From: Salinimicrobium sp.
GTDB taxonomy: Archaea; Thermoplasmatota; Poseidoniia; Poseidoniales; Poseidoniaceae
Direction of reading: 5' to 3'
DNA: 64,000 bases
Assembly: GCA_964228865.1 (NCBI GenBank)
Contig: CAXRAI010000071.1
Location: 2,418-66,417, forward strand
Below are positions 11,778-16,279 of this stretch, in pieces. Below the pieces are notes generated by a model. The model saw only the letters and a program-made list of their open reading frames with translations, was not told where the DNA came from and made no database searches. Each line of letters opens with the position of its first letter. The stretch's first letter is position 1. The position numbers and the translations under genes were made by a program.

Positions 11778-12035
11778 ATGGGCCGAAGTGTACCAACATG
11801 GCGGGTGCGTGTGGATCAAGAGTTGCAGGCGTTGGCGCCATACCGACGTTTGTTGCCTCACGATGAACAAGCGGTGTTCGATGACATGCTTGCTCATCTC
11901 CGCCAACGACGCGGAGTGGCTGGTATGCTCCCCGCCCATGACCCGTGGACGCCCCTGCTCTTGACGGCCCTGCTCGAAGCATGGGTTCGCCTTCGGTCCC
12001 TGGAAGATGCCTTGGGGGAACGGGATGCAGCCTAG
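11778..12035 (+). CDS. small helical hypothetical protein (85 aa), coupled to polB
   Basis: The ORF starts at an ATG 64 nt after the dehydrogenase stop. Its TAG stop overlaps the polB start region (ATG 12025 lies within GGATGCAGCCTAG). No family was recognised. Confidence 0.4.
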   Translation: MGRSVPTWRVRVDQELQALAPYRRLLPHDEQAVFDDMLAHLRQRRGVAGMLPAHDPWTPLLLTALLEAWVRLRSLEDALGERDAA

Positions 12036-14388
12036 TTGGTTGCTCGATGTGCACGACGAGGGCACTGGCGTGCTCACGGCATGGGTCCGCCAGCAAGGAG
12101 GGCCGGCTCGCTCGTGGCGTTTTGTGGCTCCGTGCATGCTCCACATCACGGCCATTCCCGAACGTCTCCGTGCGCTTCAGGTGTGGCTTGATCAGCCCGA
12201 GGTTCGGTTGCACTATGGCGTGATGGAATGCACGTCCATCGAAGCCCCGATCGCGTTGGGAGGCCCCATGCATCCTGTGCTCGAAGTGACGCTTCACCGA
12301 CCACGAGAGCGCCTCCGACTGGCTCGCGCCATCGACGACCGAGGGCTTCACCGTCACCACACGTTGCTCTCGGTCGACGTCGACCCAGTCCAAGCCTGGT
12401 TGACGGCCCATGGCATCGAACTCTTTGGTGGGGTGCAGTTCTCGACCGCTTCGCTCAACCCCCTCCCCTGTGCGGACGTCATGCACGATGTGCGCGTGCT
12501 TCGCATGGACGGCGACTGGGACGGTCCGCTGCACGACGGTCGGCTGCGGGCGGTCCACTTGACGCCGGTGGAGGCGGTTGGGTTCACGCCGCTTCAGCAA
12601 ACGGACGTGGTTTTGCTCGAGGCCGCAGATGGGATGGAACGCCTGATGGATGCGTTTGACCGGCACGATCCAGATGTCGTTTTGACCGAGGGGGGCGATG
12701 CCCACCTCTTGCCTGCCTTGCGTCAACGGGCGGAGGCATGGGGTGTTCATCTGCGCCTTGGGCGCTCGGCATCGGCCGTACCGACGCCGACGCGACGAAC
12801 CACCGTGCGTTCGTACGGCCGTTTGCTGCGACGAGGCGGACACCATCGCTTGGAAGGACGTGTGCACATCGACCTTGCCACGAGTTTTCTCGGACGAGAG
12901 GCTGGGCTCCCAGGCTTGATCGAACTGGCGCAGGCTTCTGGCCGTCCTCTTGATGCGGTGGCTCGGCGCTCACCAGGTGCCGTGATCAGCGCCATCCAGG
13001 TGCGTACGGCCATGCAGGACGGCGTGCTGATTCCATGGCGCAAGAACCGACCCGAAGACACCACGACCGGGTGGGACTTGCTTCACGCGGATCGCGGAGG
13101 CCTGCATCTCGACCCGAGGCCGGGCCTCTATGACGACGTGTTTGAACTGGACTTTGCCAGCCTCTTTCCAAGCATCATCGCCACGCGAAACATCTCACCC
13201 GAGACCCTTGGATGCACCTGTTGCACCGGGCACGGTCGCGGCTCCTTTGTCCCGCTTGACCCCGATGACGCCAAGCGGTGGTTTCGACAGCGTTCCGTCA
13301 GTCGACGGTTGGATCCTGGTCCACGCTCACCTCCCGCAGCCTTGAGCGTCCCCGGTCTTGAATTGCGCACATGCCTCCAGCAGCACGGTTTGCTTGGTCG
13401 CGTGGTGGCTCCCCTCATCCGGCGTCGTTCGGAACTCAAAGCCCAACGGACGGGTCCTCGTGACGATGCAGACCGCCGTCAAACGGCCTTGAAGTGGCTT
13501 CTTGTGACGTGCTTTGGATACACAGGGTACCGCAACGCACGATTCGGGCGCATTGAGGCGCATGAAGCGATTTGTGCGTGGGCGCGCGAGGTCATGCTGG
13601 AGGGCATTGAAGCAGCCCGGGCCGACGGTTGGGACGTCGTTCATGGCATCGTCGACAGCTTGTGGATCACCGATGCCTCAGGGCGTGGTTTCAACGAGCG
13701 GGCTGAGGCGGCCCAACGTTTGGCGGACCGCCTTGGGGCCACCACAGGCATCCCCTTGGAGGTGGAAGGCCGCTATCCCGTACTGGCCATTCTTCCACGT
13801 CGTTCCGACGGTGCTGGTGCGTTAACACGGTACTGGGGTTGTGGTTTCGATGCGGTCAAAGTCAGGGGCATTGAGGCAAGGCAGCACTCGACCAGTCCTT
13901 TTGTCAAGCGTTTCCAAACGGAGGCACTCGAAGCCCTTCGCCTCCACGTGCTGGCCCACGGTGTGAGCAAAGACGCCATGGAAGCGTTGTTGCTTGAAGC
14001 CCACGATCGGGCTCGGAACCGTTTGATGACCGGACAGGTTGCTCTGCGTGATTTGCTCGTTGCTCAGCGGGTTGAGCGAAGCCTGGAAGAACGCAGCGTG
14101 AACACCGTGTTGCAGCGCGCCATGTCCCGTTCTTCTCGGTTGGGCTGGCCGGTTGCCCTTGGTTCTCGCCTTCGTTTTGTGGAGGTGGAGGGCAACGACG
14201 ACGGGGTTGTGTTGGCCACAGAGTTGGACGGCATGGCCTCAACCCATCTCAGGCCTGCGCTCGAGGTCCATGTCCGCCGCCTCGACCGGGCGGCGTGGTC
14301 GCTGCTTGCACCGTTCGGCTGGAAGTTGGAGCCCCTTCGACGACCACTCGGCCAAGGTCGGTTGCCCGTGCTCCGTAACGGAGCGTGA
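12007..14388 (+). CDS. polB: family B DNA polymerase, exonuclease motifs not recognisable, variant motif C (PolB2-like?)
   Basis: Motif A is [11 protein letters not shown] (13147-13179). Motif B is [19 protein letters not shown] (13492-13548). Motif C reads HGIVDSLW (13642-13665) instead of YGDTDS. The expected ExoI/ExoII positions read [10 protein letters not shown] and [15 protein letters not shown], without DxE or NxxxFD. An alternative start is ATG 12025. Confidence 0.85.
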
Positions 14389-15096
14389 ACGCAGCGGATG
14401 GAGGAGGCACCATGCCCCTCCTTCGCGGCGAAGGCGGAGCACGCCGTCGTTTCCACTGTTCACCTCCAGTCGACTTTGTGCAATGTTGGCCAGCCTTTGC
14501 GCGCGCCACGCATGCGCCCCTGATCCGTGCCGCCCGTCAATCACGACCACGGTGGTGGCGTTGGCGTGCACGGTGCGTTCCAAGTCTGCGCAGAGGTGAC
14601 GTACCAGGTCCCGTTTCTCCCGGGCCCGCAGTTCATCGTCGTCGAACATGGCCATCGGGGCATCGACCACAACAAGGCGTGAACCGCTGTCTCGCACCTC
14701 ATCAGGAAGCCGTTTCACCATGGCCGCGCATTGGTGTGCGGTGAAGCCTCGAGCGACCCGCAACGAACGGAGGGCCCGTGGTCCGACGCCGAGGCGGGCA
14801 AGCCAGGGTGAAAACCGTCCGGGATCCAGCCGACATGCTCCATCGATCCAGTGCACGACATGACCGCTGGCCAACGCGAGCGCAACCCACGCCTCGGCCA
14901 CGGGGCGTGCACGTCGCCCGTGCCGTCCGTCGCCCACCAGCACGTGGACACCGGGTTGGCGAGGTCGGAACTCGGCCGCAGCACGGGAACGAATCGCGGG
15001 TGCTGGATGCATGGGCTCACCGGACCTTCGCGTCCGCCCGAGGAGGTGGTGAAGCCTGTCGATGACCCGTCGTGGGAAGTGAAGCGCAGGCCTCAA
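14239..15096 (-). CDS. RecA/RadB-fold-like protein with degenerate Walker A (ImuA/SulA-like in logic)
   Basis: The layout resembles RadB/KaiC-type RecA folds. VLVGDGRHGRRA occupies the P-loop position (GDGRHGRR at 14911-14934, no GK[ST]). HVVHWIDGACRLDPGRF, and Walker-B-like LVVVDAPMAMFDDDE. The only alternative ORFs in this 730-nt interval are Arg/Pro-rich junk. The start could be ATG 15012. The 3' end overlaps polB by 150 nt. Confidence 0.6.
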   Translation of the reverse strand: MRPALHFPRRVIDRLHHLLGRTRRSGEPMHPAPAIRSRAAAEFRPRQPGVHVLVGDGRHGRRARPVAEAWVALALASGHVVHWIDGACRLDPGRFSPWLARLGVGPRALRSLRVARGFTAHQCAAMVKRLPDEVRDSGSRLVVVDAPMAMFDDDELRAREKRDLVRHLCADLERTVHANATTVVVIDGRHGSGAHAWRAQRLANIAQSRLEVNSGNDGVLRLRREGGAWCLLHPLRSRSVTEHGQPTLAEWSSKGLQLPAERCKQRPRRPVEAADMDLERRPEMG

Positions 15097-15121: not shown

Positions 15122-16279
15122 GTGGAGCAAGGTGGGAAGATCCTTGTTCACTGCGATTTGGATGCGTTCTATGCAGCAGTGGAAACCCTTCATCGGGGTC
15201 TTGATCCGGAAGTTCCGCTGATCATTGGGGCGGACCCAAAATCCGGACGAGGTCGAGGCATCGTCAGCACCTGCAATTACGCCGCACGCGCGTACGGTGT
15301 GCGCTCAGCCATGCCCATCAGCGAAGCATGGCGGCGTTGTCCGGCAGCTCCCGCAGGACCAGCGACCTATGTGCGTGGCTCGCACCGGCTTTACGCGCGT
15401 GCTTCGCGACGGGTGATGTCGCTCTTGCGTGAGGTCGGCGGGCCCTTTGAGCAGGCCAGCATTGACGAGGCATACCTCGACGTCACCGAAGCCACTGGGG
15501 GTGATTGGGACCAAGCGGTGGCCTTGTGCGAGCGTTTGCAGCGTGACGTTGTCAAAGCCACGGGGTTGACCGCATCGTTTGGTCTTGGACCGACACGGCT
15601 CTTGGCGAAAATGAGCAGTGAAGAACGAAAACCGCAAGGGTTGTTCAGGCTGATGCCGGGCGATGCGGCGGATTTTTTCCAGGGCCGTCCGCTTCGAGAA
15701 ATACCTGGCATCGGTCCAGCGACGGCCACCGCCATGCAGGAGTGGGGCGTTCAAACCGTGGACGAGGCCTATGGTCTCGGCGAATTGGCCTTGGCCCGCA
15801 TGGTTGGGCCACGTTTCGCCGCCTGGTTGATGGCGGTGGTTGAGGAGCGCACCAGCGACGACGTCAGTGTCCTCCGCTCTCGAAAGTCCATCGGCAAAGA
15901 GACGACCTTTGAACGCGATCAACACGATGAAGAGCACGTTCTCGAGCAGTTGCTTGCGTTGGTGTCACGGGTCATGGAGCGTGCGTCAGAACTCGGTGTC
16001 GTGGGCCGCTTGGGGGAGGTCAAAGTGAGGTACAAGGGCTTCGAAACCCGGACCCACCGGCGTTCTATTCCCGTCGCCATGGACGATCCCGCGGTCTTCA
16101 AGGCCCTTGCAACGCGTTTGTTCGCCACCAGCCTTGAGCGTGAGCGACCGGTTCGGTTGGTGGGCTTCCGTCTCGGGGACTTGGAAGACCCTCCGACCCG
16201 ACAGGTGACCCTTGAGCGGTTCGATCCATCAGGCCAAACGGTGCATGGACGTGAGCACGGGTCGGAACGCCTCGAGTGA
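15122..16279 (+). CDS. dinB: Y-family DNA polymerase IV (DinB/Dpo4)
   Basis: Canonical motifs are all present: ILVHCDLDAFYAAVE, SIDEAYLDVT, LLAKMSSEERKPQG and the HhH segment IPGIGPATA. The start is GTG at 15122. Confidence 0.9.
   Translation: MEQGGKILVHCDLDAFYAAVETLHRGLDPEVPLIIGADPKSGRGRGIVSTCNYAARAYGVRSAMPISEAWRRCPAAPAGPATYVRGSHRLYARASRRVMSLLREVGGPFEQASIDEAYLDVTEATGGDWDQAVALCERLQRDVVKATGLTASFGLGPTRLLAKMSSEERKPQGLFRLMPGDAADFFQGRPLREIPGIGPATATAMQEWGVQTVDEAYGLGELALARMVGPRFAAWLMAVVEERTSDDVSVLRSRKSIGKETTFERDQHDEEHVLEQLLALVSRVMERASELGVVGRLGEVKVRYKGFETRTHRRSIPVAMDDPAVFKALATRLFATSLERERPVRLVGFRLGDLEDPPTRQVTLERFDPSGQTVHGREHGSERLE

Follow-up and report, generated by a model that had tools for sequence, protein, structure and literature searches.

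According to our analysis, a 64,000-nucleotide (nt) stretch of contig CAXRAI010000071.1 (assembly GCA_964228865.1, positions 2,418 to 66,417; called the window below) encodes, in the open reading frame (ORF) at 12007-14388, a bona fide PolB2 DNA polymerase typical of a marine Poseidoniales (Marine Group II) archaeon. This protein is very probably the catalytic subunit of the Poseidoniales PolB2 mutasome, that is, an active family-B enzyme free of proofreading and a likely extender in translesion synthesis (TLS). Its most conspicuous feature, a motif C that reads HGIVDSLW in a protein with lost exonuclease (Exo) motifs, is the textbook mark of a family known from earlier work, and the genomic context has likewise been tabulated before. 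PolB2 enzymes have the YxDTD motif "mutated into HxxxD" (Feng et al., mBio 2022, PMC8764526), and it is by HxxxD and the loss of the Exo motifs that PolB2 has been defined in print (PMC8764526).

12025-14388, forward strand: PolB2 gene, 787 residues from the ATG at 12025; the longest ORF, from 12007, has 793 residues.

Database homologues and all close relatives begin at M7 (MQPSWLLDV or MRPSWLLDV), so that the start is most likely the ATG at 12025; residues are numbered throughout from the ATG at 12007. We counted 2265 homologues of the protein. Its sole Pfam match is the family-B polymerase domain PF00136 (E 2.6e-16), and a profile of the family finds KOD-type PolB among the PDB chains with E 3.7e-51. 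Among NCBIfam models the PolB2-type NF004418 and NF004416 score 346 and 320 bits, and the best 'DNA polymerase I' model 83 bits. The window protein is 36% identical over 607 residues (E 8e-91) to PolB2 of Halobacterium NRC-1 plasmid pNRC200, and 22% identical (hhalign) to the canonical PolB of its own genome. Judged by these identities and scores, it is closer to named PolB2 than to canonical PolB1/PolB3, and the intact set of DxE, NxxxFD, YxxxD and YxDTD by which the canonical enzymes are recognised is absent from it.

The polymerase motifs were assigned by phmmer against PDB chains, by a 26-sequence family profile against PDB chains and by hhalign between this profile and the genome's own canonical PolB, and the three independent alignments give the same assignment.

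13147-13179, forward strand: motif A, residues 381-391, aligned to LDFRSLYPSII of Thermococcales PolBs, with the catalytic D382.
13492-13530, forward strand: motif B, aligned to KILANSYYGYYGY, with K496 and G504 kept.
13642-13665, forward strand: motif C, HGIVDSLW, residues 546-553, with the PolB2 signature HxxxD.

An earlier note on this DNA had quoted strings for motif A, motif C, Exo I and Exo II, and all of them are found in the ORF where it had put them. It had claimed that motif A retains the catalytic Asp and that motif C keeps only the second one, and both claims are borne out. In motif C the letters H-G-I-V-D-S align on Y-I-D-T-D-G of Deep Vent and KOD-type polymerases, where Tyr is replaced by H546, the first Asp by I548, and the second Asp is retained as the metal ligand D550; HxxxD in place of YxDTD, a hallmark of PolB2, is thus present in all three alignments. 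Its statement that motifs A and B are kept stands for motif A, K496 and G504, and only partly for the rest of motif B, where V-T-C-F takes the place of N-S-x-Y. The steric-gate Tyr position in motif A is occupied by F387, and the KxY primer-contact motif is R608-Y609. In the fingers, the profile aligns R474 and K478 to the Arg and Lys which we take to be R460 and K464 of KOD-type enzymes.

A Pfam search gave no match for the exonuclease domain PF03104 in PolB2, and the Exo motifs were therefore located via profile alignments instead.

12496-12525, forward strand: strand equivalent to Exo I, residues 164-173, placed by profile alignment to KOD and Deep Vent, with D168-G-D170 on D-x-E.
12667-12711, forward strand: Exo II equivalent, residues 221-235, on which three alignments are concordant.
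12856-12873, forward strand: GRVHID strand of the degenerate exonuclease domain, residues 284-289; the Exo III helix expected to follow is missing.

At the Exo I position M-D168-G-D170-W stands against F-D-I-E-T, so both acidic residues are present, as DxD and not DxE, and the same spot reads MEAEW, MDGRW, MDGQW or LEGVW in close relatives. An hhalign placement of FDLET on RAVHLTPVE was rejected for its very low column confidence, and the HMMER placement on VLRMDGDW was retained, because only the latter fits the strand-strand-strand-helix order of the AlphaFold2 (AF2) model and the spacing to Exo II (in the model, strands 164-172, 179-188 and 200-203, helix 207-220, strand 224-227 and helix 230-245). 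At Exo II the letters TEGGDAHLL fall on TYNGDSFDL, so that G229 stands in for Asn and L234 for the catalytic Asp. Exo III has no counterpart in the window PolB2: hhalign puts YxxxD on AQASG, in agreement with the earlier statement that no YxxxD is evident before the palm. In the model strand 286-289 runs straight into helix 294-311, and the segment between the GRVHID strand and the next helix is shorter by some 40-50 residues than in Thermococcales enzymes, as estimated from motif spacing. GRVHID resembles a GRIHFD strand of Thermococcales and canonical archaeal PolBs, which we presume to be a non-catalytic motif.

Motifs I-III are, in sum, deleted or radically changed, which is another PolB2 hallmark. 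The loss of Exo I and Exo II proposed earlier holds for Exo II (G229, L234) and less so for Exo I, which has D-G-D here, though in unconserved columns. It had been allowed that a profile alignment might place intact exonuclease residues elsewhere or expose misassigned aspartates in motifs A and C; the alignments revealed no complete exonuclease site in the window protein and gave no sign that the aspartates are misassigned. The AF2 model of PolB2 (predicted local distance difference test score, pLDDT, 75.6) has a confidently folded Exo domain, and its best Foldseek matches are PolBs of P. abyssi, 9N and KOD (E about 1e-33), with E. coli Pol II at E 4e-28. From sequence and model together, the exonuclease domain appears to be a folded scaffold with a decayed active site, which would not proofread.

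The orthologues examined come from 80 related loci, all of them in Poseidoniales (Marine Group II) genomes, with identities of 36-86% to the window protein. None of the 80 departs from D382, K496, H546, D550, R474, K478 or Y609, R473 is present in 79, and position 608 of the K/R608-Y609 primer-contact motif is K or R without exception; since H546, D550, D382 and K496 do not vary at all, these motifs are not due to chance. Within motif B only position 498 varies (L in 76), in motif A position 387 holds F in 77 sequences and Y in 3, and the first-Asp site of motif C, position 548, holds I in 75 and V in 5. D362, R363, G364 and G365 are kept in every orthologue, as are G284, R285, H287 and D289. 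The two Exo I columns are unconserved (E in 38, A in 14, D in 7, S in 6 and further residues at one; E in 18, V in 12, D in 9, C in 8 and further residues at the other), the Exo II Asp column (234) is occupied by H in 24, L in 15, G in 10, W in 9 and E, A and D in 5 each, and in not one of the 80 are the three mapped Exo I/II positions all acidic. Along the alignment the mean majority frequency is 0.85-0.88 in palm and fingers and 0.51 in the Exo domain. The metal-ligand aspartates and the residues that bind triphosphate and primer are under the strongest constraint in the protein, and the exonuclease catalytic residues are unconstrained.

The same picture extends to distant relatives. An exhaustive HMMER search of 1.84 billion representatives gave 502 clusters at E <= 1e-30; HGIVDSLW is the commonest motif C among the best 147 distant representatives, where a motif B of the window type also recurs. 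A tblastn search against plasmids matched 103 records, mostly haloarchaeal megaplasmids, and the matches listed are annotated "type B DNA-directed DNA polymerase". As far as these sequences tell, the motif C and the lost Exo motifs are not peculiar to the window gene.

PolB2 had been tied to a small protein, arCOG07300, and to an inactivated RadA (Makarova et al. 2014, PMC4104785); Timinskas et al. 2025 introduced the names PPB2 and iRadA for the two and built a model of the complex PolB2:iRadA:PPB2x3 (PMC11791011). In the window both are encoded at the sides of PolB2, and they are followed by a polymerase of another family.

11778-12035, forward strand: PPB2 (arCOG07300), 85 residues, with the N-terminal arm MGRSVPTWR.
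13087-13101, forward strand: ADRGG, with the PolB2 D(K/R) motif as D362-R363, which follows the loop said to bind iRadA.
14239-15012, reverse strand: iRadA, an inactivated RadA paralogue, 257 residues from M29 of the ORF that begins at 15096; its Walker A reads GDGRHGRR.
15122-16279, forward strand: Y-family polymerase (DinB/Dpo4 type), divergent from iRadA, with DLDAFYAAVE and SIDEAYLD intact.

PPB2 has no Pfam or NCBIfam match. It lies directly upstream of PolB2 and on the same strand in 78 of 78 loci, and its N-terminus is MGR[TS] in 75 of the 80 sequences examined. The AF2 model (pLDDT 88.3), in which a free N-terminal arm precedes three main helices, agrees with the description in PMC11791011, where the arm of PPB2 (MGRT, with Arg3 and Arg9) is contacted by the D(K/R) motif of PolB2, which was reassigned to this role. 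By its position, the ADRGG stretch of the window protein may play the same part, as the equivalent of 253-DK-254 in Dpo2. PolB2, if read from the ATG at 12025, overlaps the PPB2 stop codon (12033-12035) by 11 nt, and this overlap suggests that the two genes are translationally coupled.

The iRadA gene runs towards PolB2, and the two share 150 nt at their 3' ends; iRadA is found downstream of PolB2 on the opposite strand in all 76 loci in which this was scored. The iRadA family profile matches the RadA/Rad51 ATPase core (E 6e-8) and the N-terminal domain is absent; Pfam recognises Rad51 in 13 of 15 members. A canonical Walker A, GxxxxGK[ST], occurs in 21 of 71 Poseidoniales iRadA sequences (GPGHSGKS, for instance), and the commonest variants retain the Asp of Walker B; judging from these motifs, the 'inactivated' RadA may still bind nucleotide in part of Poseidoniales.

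PCNA-binding motifs have been described on either PolB2 or iRadA (PMC11791011). In the window, at 14344-14370, two apparent motifs of this kind occupy one stretch of base pairs: one strand encodes Q-G-R-L (CAA GGT CGG TTG), a C-terminal core of PolB2 that resembles a PCNA-interacting protein (PIP) box, and the other encodes QPTLAEW, the PIP-like motif of iRadA. With these codons QxxL appears on both strands because CAA and TTG are reverse complements, and either apparent clamp-binding motif could have arisen only as a side effect of the 150 nt that the convergent genes share. The tail of iRadA beyond its PIP-like motif is poorly conserved and the C-terminus of PolB2 is well conserved.

The DinB ORF matches Pfam IMS (E 3.6e-38) and IMS_C (E 9e-23), and NCBIfam Pol IV models with a best E of 1.7e-75, all of them under the curated cut-offs. 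It adjoins iRadA in 49 of the 64 loci with enough flank. The chromosomal order of 2-hydroxyacid dehydrogenase (2-Hacid_dh), PPB2, PolB2, iRadA, DinB and valyl-tRNA synthetase (ValRS) is fixed across orthologues of 36-86% identity. The other 15 of these 64 loci lack a DinB after iRadA and also have neither 2-Hacid_dh nor ValRS as neighbours; these loci (L016, L024, L052, L054-L057, L060, L062-L064, L066, L067, L072 and L082) all carry orthologues of at most 40% identity, which suggests a second, lineage-specific genomic context for PolB2. The likely starts of iRadA and dinB, at 15012 and 15122, are divergent and only about 110 bp apart, so a regulatory region shared by the two genes between these positions is plausible. 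Another convergent overlap in the cluster is at 16229-16279, where the 3' ends of dinB (forward) and ValRS (reverse) share 51 nt.

This arrangement has been recorded before. Operon group 3b (PPB2-PolB2-iRadA) of Table S1 in PMC11791011 comprises 95 operons, with 2-Hacid_dh_C in 45, IMS in 46 and tRNA-synt_1 in 42 of them, and the supplements of that paper assign Poseidoniales operons to this group and model them as high-confidence complexes. No article text on PolB2 in Poseidoniales came up in a literature search, the supplements just mentioned being the place that does hold Poseidoniales operons. The window locus shares the gene order and the neighbours of the group (2-hydroxyacid dehydrogenase, DinB, ValRS), and nothing substantive differs; the opposite orientation of iRadA and the DinB neighbour are not discussed in the text of the paper (PMC11791011).

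Taking these data together, it would be logical to suggest the following course of events. The catalytic metals would be bound by the motif A aspartate D382 and by D550, the second aspartate in motif C, and R473/R474, K478 and K496 would hold the incoming deoxynucleoside triphosphate. In family-B structures the second motif C Asp ligates metal and the first points away from it (PMC8764526); the replacement of this non-ligating residue by Ile, and of Tyr by an invariant His, would thus leave a site that works with two aspartates. The Exo domain would be kept as a scaffold whose active site has decayed, so that proofreading is lost. By homology with Sulfolobus Dpo2, the enzyme would extend mismatched or lesion-opposed primer ends in translesion synthesis, probably while bound to a trimer of PPB2 and to one iRadA, the products of the adjoining genes, and tethered to PCNA, and the neighbouring DinB may serve as inserter ahead of extension by PolB2.

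The biochemical ground for this proposal is the work on Dpo2. Purified enzymes of S. islandicus and S. solfataricus are robust polymerases with undetectable 3'-5' exonuclease; they are weak at insertion opposite lesions and efficient as extenders of mismatched and lesion-opposed termini, and in nucleotide incorporation Dpo2 is as active as the replicase Dpo1 (PMC8764526). The earlier reading of the window protein as proofreading-deficient and yet polymerase-competent is supported by residue conservation and by this analogy (PMC8764526). Its wording 'rather than a fully dead PolB2' sets up a false contrast, as the window protein is itself a PolB2, and the notion of a 'dead PolB2' (Rogozin 2008; Makarova et al. 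2014, PMC4104785) is overturned for the whole family.

Several points weigh against our interpretation and should be kept in view. The NCBIfam PolB2-type models were matched below their curated cut-offs (NF004418 with 346 bits against 692), motif B lacks the canonical Asn, and AF2 confidence is low near motif A, at the Cys cluster and in some of the fingers. The D-x-D at Exo I together with the invariant D289 makes residual metal binding in the Exo domain conceivable from the letters, and the activity we ascribe to the window PolB2 is extrapolated from crenarchaeal Dpo2.

By the original view of PolB2, the window protein would be a catalytically dead homologue with only a structural or regulatory part, for example in a replication or origin-associated complex. 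The broken YxDTD, a motif B without Asn and the lost Exo motifs agree with it, it was the published interpretation of Makarova et al. 2014 (PMC4104785), and loss of the first motif C Asp does cripple some other family-B enzymes (PMC8764526). We nevertheless regard it as improbable: a dead scaffold would not be expected to keep its metal and triphosphate ligands in 79-80 of 80 orthologues, nor to have its active-site regions as the most conserved ones, and the HxIID motif is shared by Dpo2, whose nucleotide incorporation matches that of Dpo1 (PMC8764526). Highly improbable is the idea that PolB2 of this lineage retains, or has reacquired, a weak 3'-5' exonuclease with D168, D170 and D289 as metal ligands. 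D-G-D does fall exactly on the D-x-E of Exo I, D289 is invariant and the Exo domain is confidently folded, but the Exo II Asp is Leu234, the helix with Tyr and Asp of Exo III is missing, close relatives vary at Exo I, and none of the 80 orthologues is acidic at the three mapped positions. D289, moreover, belongs to the GRxHxD strand, presumably shared with canonical archaeal PolBs and non-catalytic. In Dpo2 no such activity was detectable (PMC8764526).

A role in replication or in a mobile element deserves separate attention, as haloarchaeal PolB2 genes often reside on megaplasmids and the Halobacterium copy adjoins an IS200/IS605 transposase; the window gene could then be a second replicative polymerase or a derivative of a mobile element such as a casposon or provirus, and not a chromosomal repair enzyme. 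To this we give scarcely any credence. The chromosomal context is fixed across Poseidoniales orthologues of 36-86% identity, the GC content of the gene (0.63) is not atypical in a window that ranges from 0.55 to 0.63, and no integrase or cas1 neighbours of PolB2 were found among the window ORFs. The genome also holds a canonical PolB on contig C58 (91-2922 of the fetched locus), with FDLET, YNIDNFD, YCRRDA, DFKSMYPS, KILMNSFYG and YSDTDS, and the large subunit DP2 of PolD on contig C72, so that the polymerases found in it are PolD, canonical PolB, PolB2 and PolY. Because canonical PolB and PolD are there already, replication is independent of PolB2. An active polymerase without proofreading, working within the PolB2 mutasome, is therefore the interpretation we keep.

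Within the family, the window protein can be set beside its better known relatives, and here the comparison with Dpo2 of Sulfolobus islandicus and Saccharolobus solfataricus relies on published motif descriptions of that enzyme. Both have HxxxD with Ile at the first-Asp site (401-IID-403 in Dpo2, I548-V-D550 in the window protein), a D(K/R) before motif A, lost Exo motifs, and genes for PPB2 and iRadA alongside (PMC8764526, PMC11791011). They differ in that Dpo2 is described as the smallest PolB2, with a far more eroded Exo domain, whereas the window protein has 787 residues, a confidently folded Exo scaffold and an insertion of about 45 residues after CxCC, and iRadA of Poseidoniales is on the opposite strand. 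The pNRC200 PolB2 of Halobacterium salinarum NRC-1 (WP_010904193.1, NF004418) shares ELDFxSL.P, ALKWxLVxCFGY, HGIVDSIW and ADRGG. It is shorter (722 residues), has CDC for CxCC and no insertion, and it is plasmid-borne and adjoins orc4, with PPB2 and iRadA not annotated in the 8.6 kb inspected.

Farther away, Rev3 of eukaryotic Pol zeta belongs to a subfamily other than PolB2; its motif C is the canonical DTD, it has Rev7 partners, and a Cys-rich metal-binding domain lies at its C-terminus. In function it is an analogue, namely a family-B enzyme without proofreading that extends mismatched or lesion-opposed termini after a Y-family inserter (PMC8764526). The bacterial mutasomes Pol V (UmuD'2C-RecA) and ImuA-ImuB-DnaE2 are analogues in architecture, which combine a polymerase, a small oligomeric accessory protein and a protein of RecA/Rad51 fold, with a clamp-binding motif on one subunit (PMC11791011); they differ in that the catalytic subunit is of the Y or C family and the accessory proteins are unrelated to PPB2.

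Apart from its catalytic residues, the protein has a conserved set of cysteines, the first three of which come just after motif A.

13213-13374, forward strand: cysteines C403-x-C405-C406 and C456 (in HTC), which flank the insertion of about 45 residues in Poseidoniales sequences.

Each of the four cysteines is kept in 80 of 80 orthologues, and CxCC is common in distant PolB2 representatives; a pairwise alignment confirms that the insertion is absent from the Halobacterium enzyme. The region is unreliable in the AF2 model. Thermococcales PolBs have, we assume, a disulfide at the corresponding place. It is tempting, though doubtful, to see in the four cysteines a structural metal site (Zn or Fe-S) at the junction of palm and fingers, undescribed for PolB2, and in the insertion they bracket a lineage-specific interaction module.

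The window locus adds no new mechanism, and the significance of the finding is mainly one of annotation. We suggest that this gene and its orthologues, sampled here from 80 Poseidoniales genomes, be labelled as the PolB2 extender of a PolB2-PPB2-iRadA mutasome; labels such as "DNA polymerase I/elongation subunit" or "inactivated polymerase" are unsuitable for them. Poseidoniales are abundant archaea of the surface ocean, where their exposure to sunlight is strong. Their conserved cluster, in which PolB2 is joined by a Y-family polymerase, fits the inserter/extender model derived from Sulfolobus biochemistry, and it suggests that such a system is of ecological importance for these organisms.

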